DNA from: Reclinomonas americana ATCC 50394
Taxonomy: Eukaryota
DNA: 20,000 bases
Assembly (NCBI GenBank): GCA_048213135.1
Contig: PS015018.1
Coordinates: 48,348-68,347, forward strand
Direction of reading: 5' to 3'
Shown here: positions 1-20,000 of the stretch, in pieces
How positions within the stretch are numbered: the first letter of the stretch is position 1
How the letters are laid out: each line of letters starts with the position of its first letter
Translations under genes and position numbers: made by a program
The notes under the pieces: generated by a model
What the model saw: only the letters and a program-made list of their open reading frames with translations
Told to the model about the DNA's origin: nothing
Database searches by the model: none

Positions 1-1257
1 GGCGACGCACCCAACGGCGGCAGCAGCATCGGCGACTGTGGAAGTTGACGAACGTGCTGTGACTGTGCTTGTTGCAGTAGCAGTAGTTGCTGCTGCTGCT
101 GCTGTTGTTGTTGTTGTTGTTGTAGTTGCTGACTCGCCAAGCGTGTGGCCACCGGAGAAGAGAGCAGCAGCGTTGAATCCGCGGCTGTCGCCGACGGCAT
201 CGGTAGTGAGGCGAGCATCGGCGGCACCGACGGTCTGGTGGTGACTGATGAAACAGCCGGTACTACGACACGCTGCATTGTGGGTGACAAGCCGGTGGGT
301 ACTGTGGTCGTGGTGCTGGTGCTGCTGGCCATCATCATAGCCGGAGTCACCATCGAAGCGCCACCGCTGCGACTCATGAATGCCGACGACGGCGACCGTG
401 ACGAGGAGCTGACCAGGCTGGCACGCCGCGCCTGGGATGGTGAGTCCTCGCCCTCGGGCCTGTCATCGTCGGACGCAGAGTCCGACGGTCCATACGGGTG
501 ATGCCGATCCGACGCAGCAACACCCGGCGACCGACGGCGACCGCCCATCACCGCCGCAGAATACGCCCGCCGTCCTCGCTTGCCTTTTGGCGGCGAGTCC
601 TGGCCATAAGTCTGCGATAACAACAACAGCGCAATCAGTTGTCCGACCACAGTGCAGTGATGACGCTGGCTGGTTTCACACATACCGGTGAGTCGGGAGC
701 GTCATCGACACCCGAGCCTGGTGTCTTGGCTTTCCGTCGTCGGTTCTCGAACCATACCCTGCGACGCCCGCAATACTTTGCTGTGAGGCGCGCGGAAACA
801 ACTGTAACGAAAACAAACACACGCAACGTTACACTCGTCAGAGTGCGTCCGAATGCCGCGGCAATCTCCTCCTTCTCGTGCCTTGTCGGGAACGAGTTGG
901 TCTTGTACATGGTCTCCAGGATGTGCAGCTAGCAGCAGCAGCAGGCCCATCAGTCACAGTGACAAACACATACAGTCTCAGTCTCAAAAAATGAATCCGT
1001 GCACAAACCTGCTCTGGCGTGTACTTTTTGTACGAGCGCGACTTGTGCTGCTGCGAGCGCGCCTGTATGCTCTGCACAAGCGACGCCGCCGTGGCAGACA
1101 GAGCCGCTGCCGTGGACAACGTGGACGATGATGAGGGTGAGGCAGGCATGGTACCAATGGTGATTGGGGGCGCCACAATGCGCATCAAGGACGGCGGCTG
1201 TTGATGAACAGGAAAGTCGGTGTTGCGATTGCCACTTGGCTGCTGGTCCATCAGCAT
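1..1257 (-). CDS. Homeodomain transcription factor (3' end runs off the window); Ser/Pro-rich, with poly-Gln C-terminal region
   Basis: Exons 1257-1009, 928-828, 758-686, 611-<1 (GT-AG introns 1008-929, 827-759, 685-612) give ...KSRSYKKYTPEQ|LHILETMYKTNSFPTRHEKEEIAAAFGRTLTSVT|VWFENRRRKAK. This has homeodomain spacing L16, Y20, P26, A35, W48-F49-x-N51-R52-R53. ATG 1257 is tentative because an acceptor-like CAG lies just upstream. Confidence 0.9.
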
Positions 1258-2227
1258 TGTCTGACACACGCGGTGTGGGCGGCAAGGGGCAAGAGAGAGC
1301 AAGAGCTTTCTGGACACCAGCATACACAAAGTGAGCTGATATTGTTGACAAAAAGACAAGATCGCGCGTTGCTTCTGCTCACGCACCAAGCACGCCAATA
1401 AGTGGTGAGAAAGGCGAGACAGAGAGACAGAGAGAGGGTTGAATGAGAACAATGAGAACCGAGAGTGGCAAGCATGATCAATTTTTTTGTTTTCTCTCCA
1501 ACAGGCAGGCATGCACCAAGCGCACCAATAAGCAGCGGCACATGTAACAAGCATGCAGCACCACACACAAGATGCTTGAGGGACGACGCGCGCGAGAGAG
1601 AGAGAGAAAAGAGGCAAAAAAGTTGTAGTATTCCCCTTGCGCCGGTATGACTGTGTGCACGTGGTGCGCTCTGCTCGCACACACAAAGAGCTTTCTGCAT
1701 CACTGTCAACACAAAAAAAGAGGCAATAAAAAAAGGAAAACACAATGCACTTTCGCTGTGTGTGTATATAATGCGCGTGTGTTTGTGTGTGTGCAAGACA
1801 GGAGAGTGTGCGAGAATGTTCGAGTTCAGTGCACCAGTGTGACTGGAAATGCTGCAGAAGACTGAAAGAAAAGGAGTACTTATTTTTGTGTCTCACCTTC
1901 AACACACTCACATGTGGGTGAGAAGAAGCGACGTGCACATGACAGGTGGAGAGACAGCGAGAGAGCGGGGGGGAATGTGAACAAGAATCAATCATTATTT
2001 TGTGGCAAGAGGGAAAACGGTCTCGTCCCTCTCTCTCTCTCTCTCCCCTTTCGTGTGTGTGTCTCTCTCGCCTGCTCGTGCATATGTGTGTCTCTCGGTA
2101 TACAATACGTGAGGGATGTTCACCTGTGTTCCGCGTGCGTCCCCGTGTGCTCTTCGCTCCTGCGACAAAGAAAGAAAAACAACAACCAGTGTTGTGCTGG
2201 AAGGGCACTCCGGCTCCGTATCCCCGT

Positions 2228-2563
2228 ATGGTAGGGATCCTGACAATTCGCCATTGGCCGTTTTCGTACACACACGCGATGCCGTCTTTTCTCTCGCACA
2301 CCCGCGCCATGACAGGCTCCGGTTCTCGTGCTTTCCCTCTTTTTGCGAGTATGGTCATTCCACACGTGGCGTGCACGCTACATCGTCATTGGAGGGCGCA
2401 TTGGATTCCTTGCAATATGGTTGTTGGTGATACTGCAGCCTTCGGGCGCGTTGTGTTTGCTGCCTTTGGCGTGCCCCGCTTGCTCGGGATGTCCGGAAGA
2501 GGCGTGTCATACCACAGCAGAAGAAGAGCAGCTGCCCATCGATACTGCTACGGTCGCTCCGAG
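2228..2563 (+). CDS. Possible 5' exons of an unknown membrane-anchored protein (runs into a gap)
   Basis: ATG 2228|GTAGGG...ACAG 2315|APVLVLSLFLRVWSFHTWRARYIVIGGRIGFLAIWLLVILQPSGALCLLPLACPACSGCPEEAC..., then AG|GTCGCA at 2564 and a CAG at 2735-2737. Hydrophobic segment plus Cys cluster; no homology recognised. Confidence 0.25.
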
Positions 2564-4722
2564 GTCGCATGTTGACTCGGCGAGCGATAACCAAACACGG
2601 CAACGTACATGTAACAAGAGCCCGCGCAGCACGCCTTCACTCACGCCCTTCACTCTTCCAGCAGGCCACCGCCCCACACCGCTTCCTCCCCACCAAACCC
2701 CTCTCTGTCCCCCTTCCTCCGCTGCACAGACCCCCAGNNNNNNNNNNNNNNNNNNNNNNNNNNNNNNNNNNNNNNNNNNNNNNNNNNNNNNNNNNNNNNN
2801 NNNNNNNNNNNNNNNNNNNNNNNNNNNNNNNNNNNNNNNNNNNNNNNNNNNNNNNNNNNNNNNNNNNNNNNNNNNNNNNNNNNNNNNNNNNNNNNNNNNN
2901 NNNNNNNNNNNNNNNNNNNNNNNNNNNNNNNNNNNNNNNNNNNNNNNNNNNNNNNNNNNNNNNNNNNNNNNNNNNNNNNNNNNNNNNNNNNNNNNNNNNN
3001 NNNNNNNNNNNNNNNNNNNNNNNNNNNNNNNNNNNNNNNNNNNNNNNNNNNNNNNNNNNNNNNNNNNNNNNNNNNNNNNNNNNNNNNNNNNNNNNNNNNN
3101 NNNNNNNNNNNNNNNNNNNNNNNNNNNNNNNNNNNNNNNNNNNNNNNNNNNNNNNNNNNNNNNNNNNNNNNNNNNNNNNNNNNNNNNNNNNNNNNNNNNN
3201 NNNNNNNNNNNNNNNNNNNNNNNNGAAAACAGTCAGCGACTTACAGACAATCAACAAAAGATACGGACGACGGATAGCGCTGTATCCTGCTTCCTTGATG
3301 CACACGTTCTATATGTGTGCAACAATCTCACTCACTTACTCACTAGCAGCACAAGCAAATGTCCCGATCAACGCACACTCTTCTTGAAGGCGCTTTTCCA
3401 AGAGTGGAAAAAGCTCCCAATCGACACCATTAAAAAAAGAGAGCACAAGAGAGACACACACAATACATGGCAACGTACACAGGCATACACACACGCGCGC
3501 AGCTTCCCCCACGGAACACAGATGCCCAGAAAAGGAGCCTAGTAGATTGCTCGACGCGCAGTATGCGAGAGAGAGGACGGCGCGGTGGAGAATGACCAGA
3601 AAAGGAGAAGTCGTCAAGCGAACCGAACACCGGCATTATTCGCATGCGCGCGCAAGAGACTTTCTGTGTTGTCCAGAAAGAAAGAAAAAGTGGGGGTGTC
3701 GCGACGCAGAATACAGAGTTTGACACGAAAATCAGGAGAGGGAGTATGGGCATGTGCGGCGTGGAAACAGGGACGGAAAAAGAAGAAGAAGAACGGCAGA
3801 AAGAGTGCGTGTGTATTTGATGAGAATGGGAGGAAAAAAGAAACGACCGAAAGAGACCCAATAAAGTATCTCTTTTGCAACAGCCAACTGCAGCAAAAAA
3901 GCAATACGCGTTGCCGGCTCGGCGGCGGAAGGAGTAGGGTGGAAGAGAAGGAAAGAGAGAGCGGGTGCTCGGATACGACACGCGAGACACGCGAGCGGGG
4001 AGAAAATAAAGATGCTTGCATCAAACGACAAATCCCCGCAAGAGTGACGAGAAAAACAAGGCGACATACCCGCACACAAGCGTGGCAGAGACGCCGCCAG
4101 CGTGGAAACAGGGGAGACGAGCGAAAAGTAGTAGTGAAACCAGAGGCGGCAACGGTGAAAAACAGGGAGAAAACACGTCCCACCACAAAACAACAACGGG
4201 GCACACACACAAGAAGAGGTGAGTAGGGCAGAGGAGTAGAGGGAGACGAGAGCATCAGGGGTTGCATGCAAGCTGCAGGGGAGGAGATAGAGAGAAAAGG
4301 GCAACCAGCACGGAAACATGTCCCCCTACACAAAGAGAGAGAAGTACTCTTGCATTGTAGCGCAGGGGTACGCGCAGCAAGACTAGCACACACAGCAGCA
4401 GCCGGAGGTCAAGAGAAGAGTTGACAGCAGGGAGAGAGAAAAAGAGAGACAGCGACTGTCATTTCCGCGTGTGCATATTCGACAAAAGCGAATGGTCGAC
4501 GCATGCAGATATCGCAGCGAGAGAACATCGGCGAGATGAAGACGATAGAATAACAACCCGTGCAGTGAGAAACACTCTCATCGAGGCACAAAGACACAGA
4601 GAGGCGAGCAAGCGAGGGAGAGGAATAATGATTGATCTTCACGCATGCGAGGAAACAGCCAGCAAGAATCATTAATGTCGTGAAGAGGAAACGTGTGCCG
4701 TGATGCTACATAGAGAAAGGGA

Positions 4723-4726
<4 letters not shown>

Positions 4727-4819
<93 letters not shown>

Positions 4820-4820
4820 G

Positions 4821-4856
<36 letters not shown>
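4727..4856. repeat. (GA)n microsatellite at a contig end
   Basis: About 130 nt of near-perfect GA repeat; (GA)n resumes at 5547-5576 after the gap. Confidence 0.95.
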
Positions 4857-4857
<1 letters not shown>

Positions 4858-5546
4858 GAGACGAGACGAGACGACGACGACGACGACGTACGTACGTAGT
4901 AGTAGTACGTAGTAGTAGTAGTANNNNNNNNNNNNNNNNNNNNNNNNNNNNNNNNNNNNNNNNNNNNNNNNNNNNNNNNNNNNNNNNNNNNNNNNNNNNN
5001 NNNNNNNNNNNNNNNNNNNNNNNNNNNNNNNNNNNNNNNNNNNNNNNNNNNNNNNNNNNNNNNNNNNNNNNNNNNNNNNNNNNNNNNNNNNNNNNNNNNN
5101 NNNNNNNNNNNNNNNNNNNNNNNNNNNNNNNNNNNNNNNNNNNNNNNNNNNNNNNNNNNNNNNNNNNNNNNNNNNNNNNNNNNNNNNNNNNNNNNNNNNN
5201 NNNNNNNNNNNNNNNNNNNNNNNNNNNNNNNNNNNNNNNNNNNNNNNNNNNNNNNNNNNNNNNNNNNNNNNNNNNNNNNNNNNNNNNNNNNNNNNNNNNN
5301 NNNNNNNNNNNNNNNNNNNNNNNNNNNNNNNNNNNNNNNNNNNNNNNNNNNNNNNNNNNNNNNNNNNNNNNNNNNNNNNNNNNNNNNNNNNNNNNNNNNN
5401 NNNNNNNNNNNNNNNNNNNNNNNNNNNNNNNNNNNNNNNNNNNNNNNNNNNNNNNNNNNNNNNNNNNNNNNNNNNNNNNNNNNNNNNNNNNNNNNNNNNN
5501 NNNNNNNNNNNNNNNNNNNNNNNNNNNNNNNNNNNNNNNNNNNNNN

Positions 5547-5581
<35 letters not shown>

Positions 5582-6564
5582 AGAAGAGGAGCGGACGTTC
5601 TGGCGAAGGAGACTGCTGTAACTGGAGCGAAGTCAGAGAGAGTGAGAAAAGAGACCAGCACGATTAGATCGCAGCACAAGTGGCAATGTTTTGGCGAAAG
5701 CAGAGGGTAGTGTGAACATCGAGGGTGGGGGAAAAGAGAGCATGCATCTGGCAATGCGCGGATGCGATGTCACGACAATGGCATACGAGAACAGTGGAGT
5801 AGTACCGCAGCAGTTCAAGAACAAGCAGCAAAGGTGAGACGTGGGTACAGAAGTGATGCGACGAAGGGAGCGCATAGAAGCGCACGTACAGAAGCACTGG
5901 TAATGGTGAGGCAGGATCCTGAAGGCACAACGAGCAGACCAAGACAGCACAGACTCGAGCACAGCGACAGAAGACAACGCACGATGGTAACGAGAGAACG
6001 ACGCACACTTCGCACGATTTCACAAACACCGGGGAGATTCGCACAGGAAGAAGAGCTTCAAAGGAAACCAGGGCAGATTTAAGTGCGTACGAGAATTACA
6101 AAGCAGTGAAACAAGAACACGCCATCAAACGACTGCGCAGCAGCGGCGATCACGTGAACGACAGTGGGACAGCACGAGCTGCGAGCGAGATGAGGCAACA
6201 CACACAGGGACACGAGAGAAGGAAGGCAGGTGAGAAGCTGACAGCGAGCAGCCACAAACGACATTAAACAAGAATGCAAGCACACACAATATTCGACACG
6301 AGAGAGCAGGAAGTCTGCGACAACCATCGGTGCAGATGACAAGAGATGGAAACGAAGCAAGAGCACAGTCACGAGGACAAGACGATACGAGCGAGCAGTT
6401 GGCTCCGTGACTGCAGACAGTCGAGCATCGGAACGAATACGCATGAAACGCAGGCACACGAGAGAGCAGGTAGTTGGTGACAGACAGCGAGCGAGCACAC
6501 TCGAGCAACGAGCGAAGCGAGAATGCATTCTAGAAAACGACACGAGAGAGCAGATGGACAGTGA

Positions 6565-6932
6565 CAGCACAAGCAACGAATGCACAACGATGAGGAAACA
6601 GACTGTTGTTGAGAGCACGTGGTATAGCGAGTGACGAGAGAGGCAAGCGAACAGCGACACGAGGGAGCGCAGTCGGCGACAGACAGCGAGTCACACAGAT
6701 AACAAGGAACGATCAAAGAACGCAACCACGAAGCCACACACGACGACAGAAGAGAGCAGCTAGCTGCTGAGGACGGCGATTGTGCAGCACAGGCAACGAA
6801 TACAAAGCGATGAGGAAACAGTACTTGACGCGAGCAGATCGTGTCAATTCCAAGTGACGAAGTGAAGCCAGCGAACAGCAACACGAGAGAGCGCATCGTC
6901 GATGAAGGGAGCAAAAGTAACGAATGCACAAC
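6565..6932 (+). repeat. Imperfect 37-nt direct repeat (two copies plus one partial)
   Basis: 6565-6601 CAGCACAAGCAACGAATGCACAACGATGAGGAAACAG vs 6785-6821 CAGCACAGGCAACGAATACAAAGCGATGAGGAAACAG (33/37 identical); AACGAATGCACAAC again at 6919-6932. Confidence 0.7.
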
Positions 6933-7092
6933 AATAGAAAAGACGGGCTATTGATGAGAGAGCACAAGAGTCGAGCACGTCGATGGGTAGGTCGCGATGG
7001 ATTACAAAGAAGCAGCGAACACACTGACACACACATCTCCACACGGGCGATCGAGAACTCTCCACGCTGCTACGCACGCTGCGCCTGTCGAC

Positions 7093-7126
<34 letters not shown>

Positions 7127-7187
7127 ATCATCCTGTTCTCTGCCTTCTCAATCTCCTTCTCCTTCTCCTTGCTGCCGACAACGAAAC

Positions 7188-7864
7188 TTGCGACGAATGG
7201 CACGAGTGCGCTTCACACGGAGATCCAACGGCAGCTGGCTCTTGCCGGCAAACGCCTTGCGTGTGTTGCTGCGGCGCTTGGCATTCAACACCGTCAACAC
7301 GCGAGCAATGTTCTTGCGCACAGACGAGCTGCGATACACAAAACACACAAAGTCAACAACACTGCTCCATCGCCCGTCCTCCTCCTCCTGCTGCTGCTGC
7401 TGGCACGCAACATCTTGCCGAGCTTGGAGGCACCACCGCTGGTCACTTGCGCGACGCGCAGTTGTGCGAGCTCCTGCTTGAGCTCGGAAAGCTGGCGCTG
7501 CAGCTCCTCAGGTGACTTCTCGCGGAGCGAGTACGCAGAGATCTTGGCTGTGTGCGTGCGTGTGCGTGTGTGAGTGACATGACATGTGCGCGCGCGAGTC
7601 ATGGCCAACAACAACAACAATCGCAGCAGAAGCAGAAGCACACAAAGGACGAGTCCTCTCTTTGCTCTCTCACTGTGTGCACGCGATGCGCGGGACCACA
7701 CCACACTCGTACGTGAGCGTGCGTGCGTGTGGGCGCACATGCATGCACATCAGACGCACTCTCTCTCTCTCTCTCTCAAGCCTGCCCTGCCCCAATCCGT
7801 CTCTGTTTTTTTCGTTCACACGCAGCACGATGCTCCCTGTCCCTGTGTACCCTACGCAACTCAT
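7188..7864 (-). CDS. RPL35: 60S ribosomal protein L35 (uL29); final exon not found in called sequence
   Basis: Exons 7864-7861, 7547-7412, 7328-7188 give [103 protein letters not shown] and PLDLRxKxTRAIRR are eukaryotic L35 motifs. Confidence 0.95.
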
Positions 7865-8205
7865 GATGATGTGGTGGCTCAGGGGGCGAGGCGCGATTGG
7901 TGAGTGTGGACTCGGTCCGTCCACTGGCACAGACCGTCGAATCCGTAACGTGTGTTTCGTATCTCGAGCTATCATGTTTTCCAGGCTGGGGCGTCTCTTG
8001 TTGCGTCCATCTTTGTATATTGTGAAAGAGAGACAGAGAGAGCGGGCTGAGCAGAGTTGAAGTGTGTGTGTGTCGTTGGGTGGAAATGGACGGCGTTCGT
8101 GTCCTCCTTTCTCTCGAGTGTCTGCGTGCGTGTGTGTTTCTCTCACGCGTGCTGGTGTGTCTCCCTCTGTATGTGGGTGGCACACNNNNNNNNNNNNNNN
8201 NNNNN

Positions 8206-9429
8206 ACGGAAGAGTCTCTTGAAGATCTTCTTGACGATCGACAAGAAGTCGCGTGGGAATGGTTGATCTGCCCACAAAGAGTCAGTCACTTGCAGCGTGA
8301 GTATGGATGACGAACAGCTGCTCCCTGCCCTCTCTCTGCTCGTGAGTGCACGTGTGCTCACCTGGCTTGGAGGGGAAGATGGTTTCTTGTGACACCGTGT
8401 CGCCAATCCATTGCATCAGCAGCTCGACATACTCCGGTGCCGACACCTTTACCGGCTTCTTCACCTTGTCGCCATCCGCCCACAAGTACTCGTACTGCAA
8501 AACAACAACAACAACAACAACTGTGAGGGGGGAGGGAAAAAACACCCCCCACACACGCTGCTGAGTGAACTGCACCTTGGGACCGGCATTCATCGTCGGG
8601 CACGTGGTCTCATCGCAAAACTCAGTGATGCTTCCGTACAACAAGTTGGTCGTGTTGTAAAAGTCAATGGCTGCGCCAAAACGGAACGGATGGAGAGAGG
8701 AGGAAGTGAGCACAGGAGAGCAAGGAGAGTGTTCTTTGCGAGGATTGACGAATTGTGAGCTCAACTGTTGACTGCCAACCACTCATTCAGTTCCTCTCCG
8801 GGTGGAAGCACCACAGCCGCTCGCAAGTCACCGCTGCCGAGGGTGGCCTTGGCCAGCTTGTGCAATGAGAACTGCTTGGTGCCCTGTGTGTGTGTGTGGA
8901 GAGATGATTGAGTGAGAGTGATCAAACCGTCGAAATACACAGAGAGAGAGAGTCNNNNNNNNNNNNNNNNNNNNNNNNNNNNNNNNNNNNNNNNNNNNNN
9001 NNNNNNNNNNNNNNNNNNNNNNNNNNNNNNNNNNNNNNNNNNNNNNNNNNNNNNNNNNNNNNNNNNNNNNNNNNNNNNNNNNNNNNNNNNNNNNNNNNNN
9101 NNNNNNNNNNNNNNNNNNNNNNNNNNNNNNNNNNNNNNNNNNNNNNNNNNNNNNNNNNNNNNNNNNNNNNNNNNNNNNNNNNNNNNNNNNNNNNNNNNNN
9201 NNNNNNNNNNNNNNNNNNNNNNNNNNNNNNNNNNNNNNNNNCGAAACTCGAATCGAGGGCGCCGGCACAAACAGCTTGCGTCTGTGCGTGAAAAGAGGGC
9301 CCGATCAATTTGTGAGGGACCTGCTGCTCATCGACACACACACGCGTGCTATCGCGCACTCTTCCTCTCTCTCTCTCATGTGCGCGTTGTTGAAGCAACT
9401 CACCGCGATGGCGACGTGCTGTCGGTCAT
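8206..9429 (-). CDS. MOB1: MOB kinase activator 1 (MOB1/phocein family), N-terminal and central exons
   Basis: Exons 8883-8766, 8670-8576, 8494-8362, 8267-8206 give [79 protein letters not shown]...[18 protein letters not shown]. Putative first exons 9429-9404 and 9281-9248 ([20 protein letters not shown]) are lower confidence. Confidence 0.9.
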
Positions 9430-9812
9430 TTTTCCTCGTCACCAACTCACTCTCTCTCACTCACACACACGATCGCTCCCTCTCACTCGCTCTCGCACAC
9501 ACACTGTCACAGTTGGCGATGTGGATACGAAGGAGTTGTTGTGATGCTGCTCTTCTCAACTCAAGCAACAAGGGACAGGACTTCTTTGATCGACACTGTA
9601 CACTCGTTGTTCGCTTTTTTTGTTTTTCGCGTGTTTTTCTTCGCGACCCGCACAGACGCGACACACACACACGCACATGCAAAGAGGGTGCGTGGAAGCG
9701 TTGCGCACTAATACATACCAACCACACATAAGACACAAACACAGAAGGACACAACACAACTTGAAGGGCTTCCACGCCGACCAAGTCCACACACACACAG
9801 ACAGTCACGCGC

Positions 9813-10125
9813 TCAAGAGAACAACGAGTTGATCAGGTCCTCCAGCGGTGCGAGTTCCTTTCGATCAATCAGATCGAACTCAAACACTGTGTACGCGCGC
9901 GCAAGTCAGCAGCAAGGAGAGGAGGATGGAGAGAAAGAGGAGGCTGGTGACGCACCAAACCACATGAAGTGCTTGAACGCCGTGTTCAAGTGTGCTTCTT
10001 CGCCGAGTTTTTGGATCTTGGCAAAGTGGCAGTAGTAAATGTGCGCTGCGCGAGAGTGATGGAGTGAGGCGGGGACGGAAGGCAGGAGGCAGGCCGCGAA
10101 TTTGCATCAGCGGCTCACCGTACAC
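9813..10125 (-). CDS. MOB1: MOB1 C-terminal exons, located upstream of the N-terminal exons on this scaffold
   Basis: Exons 10125-10119, 10045-9956, 9886-9813 give VYAHIYYCHFAKIQKLGEEAHLNTAFKHFMWFVFEFDLIDRKELAPLEDLINSLFS*, the canonical MOB1 C-terminus. Confidence 0.92.
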
Positions 10126-10616
10126 NNNNNNNNNNNNNNNNNNNNNNNNNNNNNNNNNNNNNNNNNNNNNNNNNNNNNNNNNNNNNNNNNNNNNNNNNNN
10201 NNNNNNNNNNNNNNNNNNNNNNNNNNNNNNNNNNNNNNNNNNNNNNNNNNNNNNNNNNNNNNNNNNNNNNNNNNNNNNNNNNNNNNNNNNNNNNNNNNNN
10301 NNNNNNNNNNNNNNNNNNNNNNNNNNNNNNNNNNNNNNNNNNNNNNNNNNNNNNNNNNNNNNNNNNNNNNNNNNNNNNNNNNNNNNNNNNNNNNNNNNNN
10401 NNNNNNNNNNNNNNNNNNNNNNNNNNNNNNNNNNNNNNNNNNNNNNNNNNNNNNNNNNNNNNNNNNNNNNNNNNNNNNNNNNNNNNNNNNNNNNNNNNNN
10501 NNNNNNNNNNNNNNNNNNNNNNNNNNNNNNNNNNNNNNNNNNNNNNTTCCCACTCTCACACACACTTTCCTTGGCAGCAACGCGTGGCACTCACACACTC
10601 TGTCAACCCCCCGCAG

Positions 10617-12522
10617 ATGCGCCCGATTCAATACCTGACCGAGGATCACAAGGTCCGCGTTCGAGAAATCCGCTCCATGACCTGGCTGCAGCACACTCGC
10701 GATGAGGTTGGTCGCGTTCTTTGTGTAGTGGAGAATGCCAACATCGTACTGTGTCTGTAGAAGCGATGGGGAAGATTTCATTCTCCTTCGTTGATCGTTG
10801 TCTCTCTCTCTGTCGCCAGATCTACGACGGTGCCTACGAGCTGCTTCTCGATTCGCCGCACATGCCACCGACGGTGCGCGTGGCCGACGTCATTTACGAG
10901 GTGCTCATGCGACGGCATGTGCACAAGAGCGTGGCGGATTTGGTGCGCTCGAGCTTGAGTGGCACACGCAGTTTTCCGTGGGGGGCTGACGCGGTGATTT
11001 CTCCTTGCGTTGCAGGTGTGGTACGACATTGCGCAGGCGATTCGTCGCCGTGCCGTGGGCGAGGATCGATCGCTGCGCCAGCTTTATCGCTTTCTGCGGA
11101 ATGTGAACACGGTGCCGGAGTTCATGTGCTACGCCTACGTGCGGGCGCTCACGGCGGCCAAGCTCGGTGCGCGAGACATTCAGTTGGCTGTGCCTGGTAT
11201 CGATGTTGCGTGCCGTGCAATGCACGCCCACTCTCTTTTTCCTCCCGTCCCATCTCATTGTGCGCGCAGTCCTCGTCGAGGAGAGTCGTGCACTTTGATC
11301 TGCCACTGGAGCTCGACGTGCACGACGTGACGGAGCAGCTGTTGCCGACACTGCGACTACTGCCCGGCCTAATTCCCGAGACCGCTGTGCAGCGCATTAC
11401 CGCCTTTGTTGCGGAGAAGCAGCAGGCGCATGCGCACTTGGGAGCGCCGAGCACCGTTGCTGCGCACGATCTGCTGCAGCTGGTGCTGGAGCACGCCGAC
11501 TACGACGCCATGTTTGCTGGCTCGGCGGCCGGTCTGCAGGACGCGGCACATGACTTGGTGTTGACCGGTTCGTTGTTGTCGCCACGGCATGTGCGGCGGT
11601 CGCATGTCGCCGGCGAGGAGTACGGCAGTGATCATCCGTCGTCGTTGCTGTCGGGCTCCTACGGCACCTCCGCGAAGCTGTCGCCGCCTGCGCCGCTGTC
11701 GTTTAGCTCGTTCCAACAGCCGTCGCCACGGTTGCATCAGCAACGGCAGGTGGACTTTGACGACGGCGACGGTGGTACATTCGGCGAGTCTGCCGACGAC
11801 GAGTACAATGTCGACAGTGACGACGATGATTACGATGGGGTGGAGGACGACAGCGGCGACGACGACGACGGTGACATGCAGCCAACTCGCACCATGCTGC
11901 CCATGTTTCCGGTGTGTGTGTGTGTTTTTTCGAGTGCCACCACTTGTTACTCTGTGTGGTATCCAGCACTCACCTCCCTCCTCCTCGCGCAGGATCACGA
12001 CAAGATCACGCAAGATCTCTTTCGTGAACTCGAGTCGATTGTGGGACCCGGTCGCTTGACAGCACTTTCGACCGCGCGTGGCTCGTCGACCTCACCAGGC
12101 AGCAGGTGCGTGTTGCTTGTGCGCTCGTGTCGTTGTACTTGGCTAGTTGAGTATAACATTGTGCTGTTGCCAATGTGCAGCGTGCCGGTGCGACCGAAAC
12201 CGCAGTCTGTTGCGGGCGGCCTCAGTCGTGAGTGTCTACGTCAGCAGCATGCACTGGTGTAATATTTCTCTTCTCACTATCATCGATGTGTGTGCGCGTG
12301 CGTCACAGCCGGAAGATCAAGTGGGGCCACGCGTGCTGGATCGGATGGGGTGAGTAGATCAAATATCCGTTCTCTCGCGCCTCGCTCTCACCACTCGCCG
12401 CACAGCCTGTGATGATTGACATTTCCGCCCCTCCGCGGAATGAGTTGGCGGAGCGTGAGCAGTTTCTGCGGCAGGTGGAAACAGCGGCCGACGAACTCAC
12501 CCGACGCGAATCAGAACGCGTG

Positions 12523-12558
<36 letters not shown>

Positions 12559-13598
12559 TTGGCGGTGCCGACGTTGCAAAAGACACCGGTTCGCTACTCT
12601 CACGTCTCTCGTGGAGAATTTTCGCATCTCATTGATACTCTCGTAGGATGGCGATGCGACAAGAGGCGGCGGCGGTGGCGGCGGCGCGGGTGATGGTGGT
12701 GGCGGCAATAGTGGACCGACCTCGCTCGAGTCATCGTTTGCCAGCCTCGGTGACGAACCGAGTCGCGAGTGGTCGTCGGTGGACGAGTCATTACTCGGCG
12801 GGGCAACTGCAGACGGCGGTGACGATGCCGGTCCGCTGCACTTTGACTCTGATCTGTCGGCTCTCCGACACACCTTCCAGCCGCTCAGCTCAGCTGGCGA
12901 TAGTGGTGCCGGTGGCAGTGGTGGGTGGATGGAGAGAACGTGGGTGTGTCTTGTTGTGGTGATACGTGTGTGCTCATTACCTACCGTACGCAGCTCCCAC
13001 GTCATCGTTCCTCGAGCTGCCTGTCCCCGTATCGCAATCTCGAGAGTCGCCGCGATCGTCGGCATCGTCCACGCCGTCGGCAGCTCGCATGCAGTCCATT
13101 CTCGAGGAGTACGATCGACTGAATGCCGAACGCAGCACACGTCGTCTCTCGTCGGAACCTGTACCGCCGGCACGAAAGCACCCAGTTCTGCAGCCTATTG
13201 TTATGGAGACGGCAGCCTTGGTGGACTCGGCCACGTCGCCGGTGGAGCACCCGTCGTCCACTGGCTCCGACACCAGACCATCGCGATCGACCGCCAGCGG
13301 CGGAGTGGTCAACAGCGGCACGCAACCGAGTGACGACGATGGAGACGACGAACGAGAGGAGGGCGACGGCGGCGACGATGACGATGACGATGACGACGAC
13401 GACGAGGGCGGCGACTTTGACAGCTACAGTTCCGAAGACGAGGAACTCACCGAGGCCGATTTGCTGGCGATTCTCGAAGACGCCAAGTGGAAAGCCGAAA
13501 TCGCCACGCTGGTCACCGAGGCTCGTGCCGAGTTTGAGCTGGAGCAAGACAGTGATCGCTTCGTGCGCCGGTACAGCTCGCAGTTCCCGTTGCAGTGA
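10617..13598 (+). CDS. Hypothetical multi-exon protein: helical N-terminal domain, then long acidic, Ser-rich, poly-Gln and poly-Gly low-complexity regions (5' end may lie in the gap)
   Basis: Nine GT-AG introns (donors at about 10707, 10943, 11205, 11912, 12106, 12228, 12350, 12589, 12921) join in frame: MRPIQYLTEDHKVRVREIRSMTWLQHTRDE|IYDGAYELL...HKSVADL|VWYDIAQAIRRR...PGID|SSSRRVVHFDLPLE...EQDSDRFVRRYSSQFPLQ*. Confidence 0.75.
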
Positions 13599-13653
13599 AA
13601 CCATGCAAGTCAATTTTCCCGCCAGCATTTTGTTCTGCATCGCAAACCACCCC

Positions 13654-13996
13654 ATGAGAGGAGCACAGACTCTCATCGGCGTCGTCGTCCTCGTCGGCAC
13701 ACTATGTGTGCTTGCCTCACGCGCCACCGCGCTGCTCGGGGGTAAGAGCGTCGCAGCACATGAGCGTGACAGTGGGAGTTTGTGCACACTCACCTCTCTC
13801 TCTCTCTCGCAGGAGGCTTCGGCGGTGGCTCTCTCTTCTCTGGAGGCTCTCTGACGCTGCAGTATCAGCCACACTCGTTCCCCATTGCCGTGATCGCATA
13901 CAACAGACCCGACTATCTGCGACGCACACTCGAGTCGCTGTTGAAGGCAGACGGTGTCGACGCCACACAGATTGTCATCTATCAGGCACGGATGTC

Positions 13997-14068
<72 letters not shown>

Positions 14069-14204
14069 AGTAGTAGTAGTAGTAGTAGTGTGTGTGTGTG
14101 TGTCGACGACGGTACGGTACCGGTACGTACGTAGTAGGTACGGGTACGACGACGACGCGTCGACGTACGTCGTCGACGTACTTCNNNNNNNNNNNNNNNN
14201 NNNN

Positions 14205-14296
<92 letters not shown>

Positions 14297-16213
14297 CAAG
14301 AGGTTGATGATGAGTTGTCTTGTGCGTGCAGGACGGCTATGATGAGGGCGTGGATCGCGTGGCGCAAGAGTTTGTCGCCTCGCATAGCATGCGACACGTG
14401 CAGCACCCGCGCGTGCTCATTCGCAGTGAGGGCGCCGAGTTCATCGCCGACATGTACGCGTTCGTGCTGGAGCATGTGTTTGGCGAGTTTCCCGAGACCA
14501 AGGCATGACGAGGGAGGAGAGGTGTCATGATGGTTTTTCGTGCTGGCTGACTCGCTGGCGTGCTCGTGCACAGCATGCTATTATCATGGAGGATGATCTG
14601 GAGGTGGCCGCGGATATTTTGTGGTACTTTGCCATGATGGCACCGCTGCTCGATCGTGAGGAGGGCGAGCACACGTCCGTGGAAGTCGACGCCACTGTCA
14701 TGGCCATCAGCGCCTACAACGACAATGGCTTCGAGGGCCGTGTGCGCTTCACGAATCAGATGCATCGCACCAACTATTTTGTCGGTATGTTGCTTCTCTG
14801 CTCTTGTGACCGATGTGTGGACGTACGACCCACCGCCCCACCACTTCTGCTGCAGGACTGGGTTGGCTGTGCAGTCGGTGGCTGGCGGAGGAGCTGTTGC
14901 CGCAGTGGCCGAGTACGCATTGGGACATGTGGATTCGCAAGTCGGCCATTGCGAAGAATCGTGTGACGCTGTATCCTGAAGTGAGTCTCCCTCGTTGTTG
15001 TGTGGGAGTTGTCTGCTGAGGTTGTCGCTGCTGCAGATCTCGCGCGTGTATCACTTTGGCGAGGTTGGCACGCACACTTCCCTCGTGCCGACAACCATGT
15101 ATTCGCGCATCGTGTTGGCCAGCAGTGCCGCCAGTTGCGTCGCTCTCATGTTGTGGAGGACCATAAACAGTAGATCTCATGGTGAGCGGGCAGGAATTCT
15201 GGACTGGAGACGGTACCGAGAGGCGGACTATGACGCCTTCTTGCAGCAGCAGTTGGTGTCGGCGGTGAGCGTGTCCACCATGGACGAACTCGAGGCCGTG
15301 GCCGACATGGTCACGTCGCAGCCGGTGGTCATGTGGCTCTCTCTTGGAAAAGATGAGGTTTCGTGCACCACCACCTACCAACCTACCCTCCTCTCCATTC
15401 TCTTACATGACTGTCGGTGCAGGAAATCTGGCAATTCGTCGCAAGTGTGTTTGAGCTGTGGCCCAACAGCAACCCCATTCGCAACTCCTACAAGGGTTCG
15501 TGGATACTGCGTGTGGGAGTGTGTGTGCCCTCGGCGGCCCATTAGGGTGTGGCTTTCCTGACTGCAGGTGTCATTCCACTGTGGTATCGCGAGAGACGAC
15601 TGTACTTTGTGCTGGACACGTCGCCGTTTGCCACTCTGCGACCTGCTGTGGTCCCTGTGATTCCGGCCAACTACTGGCACCGGGTGCGCGTGTACTTTGT
15701 GTGGAAGATGCAGCGCCGTCACTGACACTCTCAACCACGCACCAGATGGAGTTGTCGCAGCTCAACGAGTCGTGCGAGGACGCCTGCTGGCGCCACAAGC
15801 TGCACTGTGTCGTTGCGCGCGCCCACCAGCCAACTTGGTCTCTTCGCTAACCCACCCCGTCTCACTCGAGTGTGCGGTGTGTCGCAGCCGGCGCTATTCT
15901 TCGCCTTTAATCAGTGCGCATCGCTGCGCAAGATCTTTACGTGCGCCAGTTGCGTGGAGAAGAACGCCGACATGGGACCGGGCTTTGAGATGCAGGTGTG
16001 CCACCGTGCATACGCTCCACAGGTTTTCTTTCCTCACTTGCCGCTCAGGATCGGTCGTGCGTCTTCGACAGCGGCCTCGACGGTAGTCGCGAAAGCAACT
16101 GCTCACGTCGCAGTGCCACCTTTCATCAGCTGTGCCCGTGCGCCCGAGAAACACCCTCCGGCCGATGGACCCTGGTCTCCCGAGCACCTGCTCGCCCCAC
16201 ATCGCAATCATAG
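13654..16213 (+). CDS. GT13 family beta-1,2-N-acetylglucosaminyltransferase (GnT-I/POMGNT1-like) with N-terminal signal/anchor and C-terminal Cys-rich domain
   Basis: Twelve exons. GT13 motifs: IAVIAYNRPDYLRRTLESLL, IVIYQ|DG, IIMEDDLEVAAD (DxD-like EDD), ISAYNDNG, RTNYFVG|LGW, WPSTHWDMWIR, PE|ISRVYHFG. Hydrophobic leader MRGAQTLIGVVVLVGTLCVLASRATA. An alternative in-frame ATG lies at 13603. Confidence 0.9.
14000..14296. repeat. (GA)n microsatellite inside GT13 intron 2, interrupted by a 20-N gap
   Basis: GA repeats at 14000-14070 and 14209-14296. Confidence 0.95.
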
Positions 16214-16287
16214 ACTACTGCCAGCGTCGCATAAAGAACTTTTGTCGTCCTTCAATCGTCCTCCTTCCCATCACACAGCGCCTTGAC

Positions 16288-18250
16288 ATGAGCCACGGCA
16301 CTCCAAGGGGAGGCTCAGTGGCCATCAACAGCCCGTACACCGCGGGCAACTCGACGGCATTCCGCTCAGGGTCCACCGATGACATGCTGCGCATGGACGA
16401 CACCGGCAAGATCAACGACAGTCTCACCCCTGTCGACGGTGACGATGAGAAGCTGGGCTTGCTGGTGCACGGGGAGCGTGACAGACGACCAGCGGAAAGC
16501 TCGTTGCGTGTTGGAGGGAGAGAGGGAGAGGGAGAGAAAGAATGTGTGCGTGTGTGTGTGACTGATGATGCGTGCTCGAGCAGATGGGCAATCGCACTCT
16601 TCAACTTTATCAAGTCGTTCATCGCCTCGGGCATTCTCGCCATGCCGTTCGCCTTCAAGCAGTCCGGCACACTGGTGAGTGGTGTGATGCACTGTCTGTC
16701 TCGTGCGTGTGTGTGCGTGTGTTGACACTCTCTCCCTCGCAGTTGGGCGTGATTCTGATGGTGGTGTGCACCGTCGGCGCCGGCTACTGCATGTTCCTGC
16801 TCATTGAGATCACCAAGACGAAGCCTATGGGAGTCATCAACGAGTACGCACTCGTTGGCAAGCTGGCTTTCGGAGAGCTCGGCGTGCAAATGGTGACTGC
16901 GGAAGAACCAGCCAGAGCTGTAGGGAAGAGGCACTCACTCGGCCTTTTTGCAGATTGACGCGTTTCTGGTGCTGACCCAAGTCGGCTTTTGTTGCGCGTA
17001 CATGATCTTCCTCGGCACCATCCTGTCGTCGCTCATTCCCGCCCTCAACCACTACGAGTGGATTCTGATTGCGTTGCCGGTGGTGATTCCGCTCAACTTT
17101 TTGCGTGATGTCCACAAGCTGGCGCCGTTCTCCATGGTTGCTCTCTGCTGCGCCATGGTGGCCATTGTTGTCGTGTCTGGTGAGTGTGTGTGTGTGTGTG
17201 TGTGCGTGTGTGCCGTGGACGAGAGCGTGTGCCATGTACTAACGGAGCGGCAGTGTTTGCCGGCGAGCACATCACGTCGCTGCCGGCCGGCTGGGCCAAG
17301 ACGCGCTCGTTGGCCACTTGGAATTTCCCGGTGGCCATCGGCACCTTTGTGTACGCTGTCGAGGGCATTGGCCTGGTCATTCCCATCTACAACACGCTGC
17401 GCAACAAGGATCGCTACCCGTCGATCATCATTGTCGGCATGGTGGTCATGTCGCTGCTCACCACTGGCTTTGGTTTCTTCGGGTACCTGGCGTACGGCGA
17501 TCAAGACACCAAAGACAACATCATCGACAGCATTCCCAGCCACAGCATCTTCACCAGTTGCGTGCGTACGGTGCATTTTCTTGCAAGATGAGCTGCCAAC
17601 CAATTTACACTTGTGTGTGTGCGTGCGCAGAAATCATCAAGTACATTCTCTGCGTCGTGATGCTGTTCACGTGCGTGTGTCGTGTGGTTGCCAGTGTGTG
17701 TGTGCGCGCGCGCAGTCATGTGTGCTAACAGCATTGCCCTTCTTCACAGGTACCCCATGCAGATGAACCCGGTGCTGGATCTGACAGAGCGCCGTATCTT
17801 CCGCAAGTATCCGTGCGTATCTCAGTGCTCTCGTCTCTCTGTGTAATCGCGCTGGCGATCTTACCCTCTCGTTCTGCCCTGCAAGTGTGTTGGATCGACC
17901 AACGTGGTGGGTGAATGCGTGGCGTGCGCTGCTCGTGGTGACCACGGCGCTGGTGGCCATGGGCATCCCGCATTTCGGCGACTTCATCTCGGTGATTGGC
18001 TCGGCCGGCAGCACCATGCTCGCGTTCACTTTCCCCGCCCTCTTCCACTGGAAGGTGCTGCGCAATACGCTTTCGCTACGACAGGTATGCGTGTGCGTGT
18101 GCATTTTTGTTTACGACGCTTGCTGATCCCCCCACCTGCCTGCTGCGACAGAAAATCATCGATTGGACTTTTGTGATTGTCGGCAGCATTTTGTGTGTCG
18201 TCTGCACCACGTTCTCGGTGTGGAACCTCGTCAAGGTTATGACATCGTAG
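16288..18250 (+). CDS. Amino-acid/auxin permease family transporter (Aa_trans; SLC36/AVT3-like proton-coupled amino-acid transporter)
   Basis: Nine exons. Motifs FNFIKSFIASGILAMPFAFKQSG, TQVGFCCAYMIF, FVYAVEGIGLVIPI, GFFGYLAYG, FT|YPMQMNP, IPHFGDFISVIGS, AFTFPALFH; many hydrophobic helices. Confidence 0.93.
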
Positions 18251-18456
18251 TTTTAGAGCGTGATCAATATTTTTGCCACCACGCCCCCCAAACAACAACA
18301 ACTCATAGTGAATTCATCATCATCAACAACACCCCTCCCTAAACAAACAACGAAAACAATCAACGAAACAACAACAACAACATAACTCTAGCACAGCAAC
18401 AAACAGGTTACAGATGCGACTACAGTTGTACAGCAGTGTGTGTATGAGCCTGCTCG

Positions 18457-19030
18457 TCACGCCTCGACACCGACGTCTTGCGGTGCATCGGCGGCCACTC
18501 CCAGCAACTCGGGCGACGCTGCTCCTGCGCCCTCCGACTCGTCATGTACAACAAAGTTGACCACACCGTCGCTGGCCAGACAGAGTCGCTCAATGTGGTC
18601 GAGAACGCCAACAGGAGGCAAGTTTCCTGCACGTCGTCGCCAGTGAGCACCCTCACCGGCAAAGGCAATAAACCAAAGGGAAAACAGAAGCAGCAACGCA
18701 ACTCAGCGCGTACAACGAGCGCAGAGTGGGACACGACCGCGAGTATGCAACTCGCGCCAATGCCAGCGTGTGCATCCTGGCGCCACACACTGCCGCCACT
18801 CGCAGAGTGAGTACATGAGACACGCACGCGAGCGTCATTCGTGTTGTACGCAACTCGAGGCCGCAAACTTGCGCAGTGAGCGGTTCTGAGCAACGCCCTC
18901 GGCGATTCTCACAATGTGCCGATTGAACGAGTTCTCTGTAGCAGCCAAATGACGTGAGCGGTGCAATGGAGGAGAGATGTGAGGCGGGTTGTGACGCAGG
19001 ACGCAACTCGAAATCGACATTTCTTCCAGA
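18457..19030 (-). CDS. RNI-like leucine-rich-repeat protein, C-terminal exons
   Basis: Exons 19030-19008, 18935-18855, 18789-18703, 18626-18457 give LEEMSISKNSFNRHIVRIAEGVAQNRSLRKFAASMCGARMHTLALARVAYSRSCPTLRSLYALRNLPPVGVLDHIERLCLASDG...VEA*. Confidence 0.75.
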
Positions 19031-19511
19031 NNNNNNNNNNNNNNNNNNNNNNNNNNNNNNNNNNNNNNNNNNNNNNNNNNNNNNNNNNNNNNNNNNNNNN
19101 NNNNNNNNNNNNNNNNNNNNNNNNNNNNNNNNNNNNNNNNNNNNNNNNNNNNNNNNNNNNNNNNNNNNNNNNNNNNNNNNNNNNNNNNNNNNNNNNNNNN
19201 NNNNNNNNNNNNNNNNNNNNNNNNNNNNNNNNNNNNNNNNNNNNNNNNNNNNNNNNNNNNNNNNNNNNNNNNNNNNNNNNNNNNNNNNNNNNNNNNNNNN
19301 NNNNNNNNNNNNNNNNNNNNNNNNNNNNNNNNNNNNNNNNNNNNNNNNNNNNNNNNNNNNNNNNNNNNNNNNNNNNNNNNNNNNNNNNNNNNNNNNNNNN
19401 NNNNNNNNNNNNNNNNNNNNNNNNNNNNNNNNNNNNNNNNNNNNNNNNNNNNNNNNNNNNNNNNNNNNNNNNNNNNNNNNNNNNNNNNNNNNNNNNNNNN
19501 NNNNNNNNNNN

Positions 19512-20000
19512 CCGCTGCGGAACGTGGATGTGGCGGCCAACCATTTCGACATGAGTGCATCTCGCGCACTGGCGGCTGCGCTCGCCACCGACTGGCCAGT
19601 GGAGTCGCTGTCGCTGTGCGGCTGCTCCATCAGCGCCGCTCTGCTCGAGCCGTTTGCGGATTTGTTGAGTTGCCATCCGACTCTGTCGACGCTTTCGCTC
19701 GCCTGGAATCCGCTGTGGGGCGGCGGTGCGACGCTGCTTGCGCGTGGATTCGCAAGTGGCAAGTCGGCACTGAGCGTGTTGGATTTGCACAACTCGCGAC
19801 TGTCGGACGCAGGGGCGCAAGTACTGCTGCGCTCGCTCGTACACGTGCCCCATTTGCGCGTTCTCAACATGTCCAGTTGCGTCGCACTCCTTTGCAAGTA
19901 CCGCTTGCGCACTACATGCTAACCTCGCGCCACCAGATGTGAGCATGCAGTCGGCAGAAACAGCCGAGTGCATCTACGAACTGCTGCTGGTCAGCGAGCA
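19512..20000 (+). CDS. RNI-like leucine-rich-repeat protein, internal fragment
   Basis: About 28-aa LRRs (LRNVDVAANHF, VESLSLCGCSI, LSTLSLAWNPL, LSVLDLHNSRL, LRVLNMS|NVSM). Intron 19876-19936 carries a GCTAAC branch point. Confidence 0.85.

Follow-up and report, generated by a model that had tools for sequence, protein, structure and literature searches.

GTTGCGT, an abundant 5' splice site with one extra base in a 20-kb window of the Reclinomonas americana genome

The 20,000-nucleotide stretch of Reclinomonas americana ATCC 50394 analysed here (assembly GCA_048213135.1, contig PS015018.1, positions 48,348 to 68,347 of the forward strand; hereafter the window, with positions counted from its first letter) contains a series of intron-rich genes in which many introns begin with GTTGCGT, a 5' splice site (donor) that carries one base more than the ordinary donors around it. 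The window comprises 17,661 called bases with a G+C content of 56% and seven runs of N, and its genes were found to be eukaryotic, tightly packed and interrupted by many introns of approximately 55-120 nt each. Gene models were built by coordinates from a three-frame reading of both strands. They contain 43 introns across eight to nine genes, none of the assembled models has an internal stop, and 36 of the 43 introns are forced, as read-through meets a stop or the intron length is not a multiple of three.

Eight genes carry the sites discussed below. On the minus strand, a homeobox gene (1-1257) was recognised from frame reading and the Homeodomain profile, the gene for ribosomal protein L35 (uL29; 7188-7864) from frame reading and the Ribosomal_L29 profile, and MOB1, which is present in three pieces (8206-9429 and 9813-10125), from the Mob1_phocein profile. 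The plus strand contains a gene for an acidic protein whose function is unassigned (10617-13598; frame reading), a glycosyltransferase gene of the GNT-I family (gene B, 13654-16213; frame reading and GNT-I profile) and an amino-acid transporter gene (16288-18250; frame reading and Aa_trans profile). Two RNI-like LRR genes, gene D on the minus strand (18457-19029) and gene E on the plus strand (19512-20000), were both obtained by frame reading. Across approximately 5.2 kb modelled as coding in genes A, B and C, no frame repair was needed. In protein database searches with single exons, a transporter exon gave one distant match (P0001) and a glycosyltransferase exon gave none, neither bringing up an annotated protein of the source organism; a search of metagenomes with the transporter exon found no relative. 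Pfam contained no match for the C-terminal glycosyltransferase exons or the exons of gene A, and an Rfam scan of the window returned no match and no small nuclear RNA (snRNA).

A total of 15 copies of GTTGCGT were found on the two strands, compared to 4.45 +/- 1.94 expected from 200 dinucleotide-preserving shuffles, none of which reached 15. In the gene models, 11 of these copies form the opening heptamer of an intron, which amounts to 11 of 43 introns (Wilson interval 15-40%) or, with the LRR genes left out, to 7 of 39 (9-33%). GTTGCG was found to be the most common donor hexamer among the 43 introns with 12 occurrences, followed by GTGAGT with six and GTGCGT with four. Together with two variants, GTTGCGC at 15812 and GTTGAGC at 8765, the class has 13 members. 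Of the four copies that are not donors, three (6720, 8000 and 13320) lie on the strand opposite a modelled gene or away from any model, and one (15949) lies in sense orientation inside an exon. As judged from these sequence statistics, the class is a real and distinct group of 5' splice sites with one extra base, used by roughly a quarter of the introns in the window. A preliminary description of the same DNA had placed about 15 of 45 introns in seven unrelated genes in this class. All 15 coordinates named there carry the letters given for them, and the 11 GTTGCGT donors and two variants were recovered, but two further sites (7187 and 9247) found no support, and the genes number eight, two of which (D and E) are related. 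A single 20-kb window, the whole sample of this study, underlies the proposal that the class forms a principal splice code; in it the lower bound on the share of introns is 15% with the LRR genes and 9% without them.

The class differs from the ordinary donors most clearly in the last base of the preceding exon (position -1, the first intron base being +1). G occupies this position in 0 of 13 class sites compared to 25 of 29 ordinary donors (Fisher p=9e-8), and without the LRR genes the class count is 0 of 9 (p=4e-6). The -1 bases in the class are A in eight, C in three, T in two and G in none of the 13 sites, a composition which resembles position -2 of the ordinary donors (A 11, T 7, C 7, G 4) and not their -1 in that A is favoured and G is not required. 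The earlier wording of sites shifted by +1 fits this, -1 in the class behaving as a canonical -2, which a U1 register shifted by +1 would predict. When the introns are sorted by exon end, 13 of the 17 with a base other than G at -1 belong to the class, and 0 of the 26 with G at -1 read GTTG[CA]G. G precedes all five of the other donors in which T stands at +3 and the G at +5 or +6 (GTTGGT, GTTCGC, GTTCGT, GTTTGT and GTTTCGT). Phase 0 is less frequent in the class (2 of 13) than among ordinary introns (16 of 29; p=0.02), the class leaning to phases 1 and 2, although this difference is not significant without the LRR genes (p=0.13).

Beyond the donor, the two kinds of intron are alike. Class introns compared pairwise over their bodies share a mean identity of 0.515, the same value as for ordinary introns (0.515) and close to that of mixed pairs (0.508), and nothing is conserved past +7. 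The median length is 74 nt in the class and 73 nt in ordinary introns, and both have the same CAG acceptors. Of the 14 class introns, 11 have a branch-like CT[ACG]A[CT] motif at a distance of 5-45 nt from the 3' end, as do 22 of the 29 ordinary introns; the frequency in an exon control is 13.7%. Donors in the ordinary register account for 29 of the 43 introns in the window, and both kinds occur within the same genes. Everything in these comparisons points to a single spliceosome shared by class and ordinary introns. In introns of the U12 type the donor is an extended [AG]TATCCTT and the branch, TCCTTAAC-like, is tightly spaced. A minor-spliceosome origin was rejected for the class, as its donor is GTTGCGT and its branch-like motifs and CAG ends match those of ordinary introns.

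The position of the cut was examined by scanning single exons against Pfam and reading the profile numbering across each junction. The second intron of the L35 gene (7329..7411, minus; 83 nt, t^GTTGCGT, where the caret marks the cut) is required by the frame, and the Ribosomal_L29 numbering runs unbroken across it: residues 7-40 of exon 2 correspond to profile positions 3-35 and residues 2-17 of exon 3 to positions 42-57, with room for exactly one junction codon; a cut at the GC three bases downstream would add one residue. In the MOB1 intron (8671..8765, minus; 95 nt, a^GTTGAGC), read-through meets a stop, the Mob1_phocein profile continues from positions 1-28 through one junction residue to positions 30-60, and no GT or GC in the same phase was found within 60 nt. 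The homeobox intron (759..827, minus; 69 nt, c^GTTGCGT) interrupts codon 46 of the homeodomain. It is in frame and open, yet it is settled by the spacing of the Homeodomain profile, as only splicing at the GT brings positions 12-37 and the following positions 46-56 into the standard helix 3 spacing. The fifth transporter intron (17557..17630, plus; 74 nt, a^GTTGCGT) is forced by a read-through stop and by a length that is not a multiple of three, and the spliced model aligns without gaps to P0001 over this junction and the next. A cut at the GC three bases downstream would lead to an in-frame stop there, and the GTGCGT that overlaps the site 5 nt further on does not keep the frame. From frames and protein profiles, the cut at 7411, 8765, 827 and 17557 is fixed directly before the GT. 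The cut previously claimed for the homeodomain, L35 and MOB1 is thus borne out by the unbroken profile numbering.

Further sites require an intron by frame or stop. The third intron of the acidic protein gene (11205..11269, plus; 65 nt, t^GTTGCGT) is needed for a change from frame 1 to frame 0, and one GT in the same phase lies 15 nt upstream. Read-through stops were found in the second and third introns of LRR gene D (18790..18854 and 18627..18702, minus; 65 and 76 nt, both a^GTTGCGT), the second at the same repeat position as its relatives and in phase 1, the third with a further stop if the cut is moved to the GC at +3. The intron of LRR gene E (19876..19936, plus; 61 nt, a^GTTGCGT) also has a read-through stop, together with a shifted open frame downstream and CTAAC 15 nt before its 3' end. 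The first L35 intron (7548..7860, minus; 313 nt, a^GTTGCGT) follows the ATG and one further base and gives an N-terminus that begins five residues ahead of the L29 profile start. It is required only if translation begins with the ATG at 7864; an in-frame ATG within the intron is an alternative start, which would add an odd 19-residue extension to L35. The tenth glycosyltransferase intron (15812..15887, plus; 76 nt, c^GTTGCGC) is called from a read-through stop, and its exact cut is not fixed, with alternatives in the same phase three bases upstream (GTCGTTG) and three bases downstream (GC). The seventh intron of the same gene (15358..15422, plus; 65 nt, g^GTTTCGT), whose acceptor demands phase 0, has G and T at +6 and +7 but G at -1, and is a further relative of the class that the preliminary description had missed.

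The remaining three sites are neither forced nor backed by homology, and the earlier statement that the donors are constrained by frame or homology holds for most sites but not for these. The first transporter intron (16503..16583, plus; 81 nt, c^GTTGCGT) is in frame and open, with a CAG acceptor, the usual length and CTGAT 19 nt before its 3' end, and the exon that follows begins at position 5 of the Aa_trans profile. The sixth glycosyltransferase intron (15134..15193, plus; 60 nt, a^GTTGCGT) is likewise in frame and open and has a branch-like CTCAT; a cut at +3 would lead to a stop. Neither flanking exon has a match in Pfam or the Protein Data Bank (PDB), and a PDB search with exon 6, the intron and exon 7 read through gave only matches at chance level. 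The first intron of LRR gene D (18936..19007, minus; 72 nt, a^GTTGCGT) is in frame and open with a branch-like CTCAC, and here too the GC at +3 leads to a stop. All 11 GTTGCGT sites have a GC in the same phase at +3, and frame alone therefore cannot separate H^GTTGCGT (H being A, C or T) from HGTT^GCGT.

Two sites named previously found no support. GTTTCG at 7182..7187 (minus), taken as the donor that ends L35 exon 3, would give a 16-nt intron with the only CAG downstream, and a search downstream of 7187 for the missing C-terminal exon of L35 found nothing. GTTTCG at 9242..9247 (minus), taken as a MOB1 donor, adjoins the N run 8955-9241, and the exon may simply continue there.

We suggest, from the pattern of these sites, that the class consists of ordinary GT-AG introns of the major spliceosome, cut before the G of GTTGCGT, whose donor would be read by U1 snRNA in a register displaced by one base. 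We give this reading a probability of roughly one half. Aligned on GCGT, AG^GTGCGT and A^GTTGCGT are eight letters with one G-to-T difference, in keeping with the earlier view of these sites as the local consensus plus one base. With the 5' end positions of U1 as printed in PMC4856993, all 13 sites form 3-6 Watson-Crick pairs with a standard U1 in the shifted register and 2-3 in the canonical register, counted as pairs and not as duplex energies (the U1 of this organism may differ). A variant U1 or U6, or altered proofreading factors, as proposed in the preliminary description, are not required, as a standard U1 already gives 3-6 shifted pairs.

In the shifted register, the intron G+1 would take the place of the usual -1 G opposite C9 of U1, the last exon base, mostly A, would lie opposite U10, and U+2 would face C8 unpaired. 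U+3 (opposite A7), G+4, G+6 (opposite C4) and U+7 (opposite A3) would pair in the manner of +2, +3, +5 and +6 of GUGCGU. To U1, A^GUUGCGU would resemble AG^GUGCGU with one mismatch, and the later steps involving U6, U5 and Prp8 would still cut at the sole GU. The class would serve where the exon cannot end in G, and it may have arisen from H^GTGCGT sites through the gain of one T.

Several observations weigh against this reading. Position +5 in the class is C in 12 of 13 sites, whereas +4 in ordinary donors of the GTG type is A in nine, C in seven, T in two and G in one (p=0.003; p=0.016 without the LRR genes), and the class is far more uniform than would be expected of the general consensus merely shifted. 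A at +5 would pair better with a standard U1 than C would, which hints at a partner with G at this position or at another reader. By analogy, the U1 of this organism could have a G opposite that position, as reported for Mastigamoeba balamuthi, or another reader could be involved. At five of the 13 sites the -1 base is C or T, and for these a shifted register brings no extra pair compared with an ordinary H^GTGCGT. Four introns (16503, 15134, 827 and 19007) are multiples of three and open on read-through, and at 16503, 15134 and 19007 the intron call leans on the motif itself, together with the CAG end, the length and the branch-like motif. Four class sites share one repeat position in the two related LRR genes, all in phase 1 and directly before a conserved N/C position of the repeat. 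These four introns may descend from a single intron through repeat duplication, although a resemblance between their bodies is no longer seen. Finally, the exonic copy in the glycosyltransferase gene (a^GTTGCGT at 15949..15955, plus; cca context), which is identical from -3 to +7 to three real donors, is apparently unused in the model. Paired with the AG at 15994-15995 it also keeps the frame (hand check), giving a 47-nt intron with no branch-like motif, and this copy may be a decoy or an alternative donor.

The best placed of the alternatives, which we nevertheless consider unlikely, retains the same introns and the same cut but has U1 in the normal register at G+1 and U+2, with one U of +2/+3 bulged, as in GU(U)GCGU. 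The bulged register forms 3-6 Watson-Crick pairs, equal to the shifted one, a further point against the shift; a +2/+3 bulge appears among the human registers in the list given by PMC4856993, and the GTTTCGT donor at 15358, with AG before the cut, would form six pairs bulged and four shifted. In this register, however, G at -1 would add a strong pair, and yet it is found in 0 of 13 class sites compared to 25 of 29 ordinary ones. A bulged site would always be weaker than the same site without the extra U, which leaves unaccounted for the preference of exons not ending in G for GTTGCGT-type donors (13) over GTG[CA]GT (4). From these 13 sites, the shifted register is tentatively preferred because G is absent from -1 and because the bulge offers no reason for this preference.

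Next in order, and doubtful to a greater degree, is a changed or second U1, or a changed ACAGAGA region of U6, for which A^GUUGCGU would be the best partner, so that two donor codes would have two readers. The invariance of the heptamer in 11 sites and the excess of C over A at +5 (12 of 13 compared to 7 of 19), which a standard U1 does not explain, are in its favour, and the preprint 10.1101/2022.06.08.495308 reports that the 5' end of U1 has co-evolved with the donor in Entamoeba and Mastigamoeba balamuthi. Such a reader is not needed, however, to reach 3-6 pairs; the window, which has no Rfam match, contains nothing that bears on it, ordinary GTGAGT and GTGCGT donors coexist with the class in the same genes, and the same preprint describes a standard U1 in two lineages whose donors carry C at +4. 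We regard as weaker still the fuller form of this idea, in which an ordinary U1 might read G^GUG[A/C]GU while a second or remodelled U1-type snRNA, or a changed handover to U6, would be cognate to A^GUUGCGU, the G at the exon end deciding between two parallel codes.

Very improbable, in our judgement, is the explanation that these are GC-AG introns which start three bases later (GTT^GCGT) with the frame kept everywhere. The GC in the same phase at +3 in all 11 sites agrees with it, as do the two apparent GC-AG introns of gene B (13986 and 14503). In 4 of the 11 sites (17557, 15134, 19007 and 18702), however, such a cut gives an in-frame stop, at 7411 and 827 the extra residue breaks the profile spacing, at 8765 the dinucleotide is GA and the cut is impossible, and exons in all three phases would need an invariant GTT end. 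Equally improbable is an extra T due to assembly or homopolymer error, or a start shared by a mobile intron family: the assembly contains numerous gaps, its contig ends show odd low-complexity sequence, and an extra intronic base would be invisible to the frames. An error of this kind, however, could have no link to the last base of the exon (G in 0 of 13 compared to 25 of 29), which rules out a miscalled T, genes A, B and C run through approximately 5.2 kb of coding sequence without frame repair, and an introner-like mobile family was rejected as the intron bodies are no more alike within the class than among ordinary or mixed pairs.

The two apparent GC-AG introns of the glycosyltransferase gene (plus strand) are 13986-14331 (cag^GCACGG) and 14503-14573 (aag^GCATGA), and 2 of 43 is high for GC-AG introns. 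The first spans a gap and low-complexity sequence, while the second is forced by a stop and adjoins an exon that matches positions 195-254 of the GNT-I profile. One transporter intron ends in AAG (17883-17885, plus), where CAG is otherwise near-universal. The spacing between genes is extremely tight at the start of the glycosyltransferase gene, whose first ATG (13603) follows the stop codon of the preceding gene on the same strand (13596-13598) by 5 nt and whose second ATG (13654) follows it by 56 nt.

Other features were noted around the minus-strand genes. The C-terminal exons of MOB1 (9813-10125, minus; stop 9813-9815) lie upstream, in the direction of the gene, of the MOB1 start codon at 9429, and the MOB1 body that begins at 9429 breaks at a 20-N gap (8186-8205) with no C-terminal exons beyond it. 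This layout represents either two tandem copies cut by gaps or misordered scaffold contigs. At the 3' end of the L35 gene (7100-7190, minus), the L35 frame meets a stop after RAIRRK, and a K/E-rich frame that could serve as an L35 tail, offset by one base, enters a GA repeat; the break is probably a frame error or a repeat that the assembly failed to resolve. The plus strand of the region 3225-7080 (approximately 3.8 kb) is very poor in T, with long AG runs (4712-4871 and 5547-5588) and loosely recurring purine-rich units, and no convincing coding frame was found on its minus strand. Runs of GAC, GTA and ACGT units at 4860-4923 and 14075-14184 adjoin N runs and resemble assembly artefacts at contig ends.

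What is known of out-of-register recognition of 5' splice sites comes from a small share of human sites and for the most part from minigene experiments. If true across the genome, a genome whose commonest donor is of this kind would provide a large natural sample. It would bear on how the binding of U1 is uncoupled from the choice of the cut site, on the tolerance of U6 for an extra base, and on the influence that coding constraint at the last exon base has on intron signals. Gene finders and weight matrices trained on donors of the GTRAGT type would miss or mis-score a quarter of the introns, and such mis-scoring could explain why many 'non-canonical' introns have been reported in some protists.

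Full-text searches on motif and register terms, with subscription papers and supplements outside their scope, found no description of such a donor class; the titles listed for the motif were all unrelated, and the searches on register terms returned only work on humans, tunicates and Archamoebae. The closest known system is the mammalian +1 shifted register (Roca and Krainer 2009, as relayed in excerpts of PMC4856993), in which GU is likewise followed by an extra base, +5G and +6U are moved to +6 and +7, U1 fits better when shifted and cleavage occurs at the GU. Shifted and bulged registers have been established experimentally in human cells by suppressor U1, and the validated noncanonical registers combined make up 1.5% of 201,541 human sites, as stated in the same excerpts. 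Mammalian shifted sites are rare, whereas in the window one heptamer accounts for 11 of 43 introns, near-invariant as GUUGCGU against a local consensus of the GUGCGU type; the register in R. americana is inferred. Human sites with a +2/+3 bulge (Roca et al. 2012, likewise through excerpts of PMC4856993) share the GUU intron start with one U surplus to the consensus, but the bulged register profits from G at -1, and the class has none.

Among protists, Olthof et al. (2024; PMC11347168) found by weight matrix a large share of low-scoring 'non-canonical' introns in four species and, in the passages concerned, left open whether poor annotation or flexible splicing is the cause. A class such as GTTGCGT would score low in the same way; those passages give no motif. 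Roy and Bowser (10.1101/2022.06.08.495308) describe, in the sections drawn on here, the Entamoeba donor GUUUGUU with a U1 of AACAAAC, the M. balamuthi donor GUGCGC with a U1 of ACGUAC, and a preference for C at +4 in Thecamonas and Mamiellales with a standard U1. The co-evolved donors of the Archamoebae in that account resemble the present class in having a lineage-specific T at +3 or C at +4 and conservation out to +7. They differ in that the atypical donor is nearly universal there and is recognised, in the normal register, by a U1 that has changed, whereas the class in the window is a minority beside ordinary donors and has its own rule for the last exon base.

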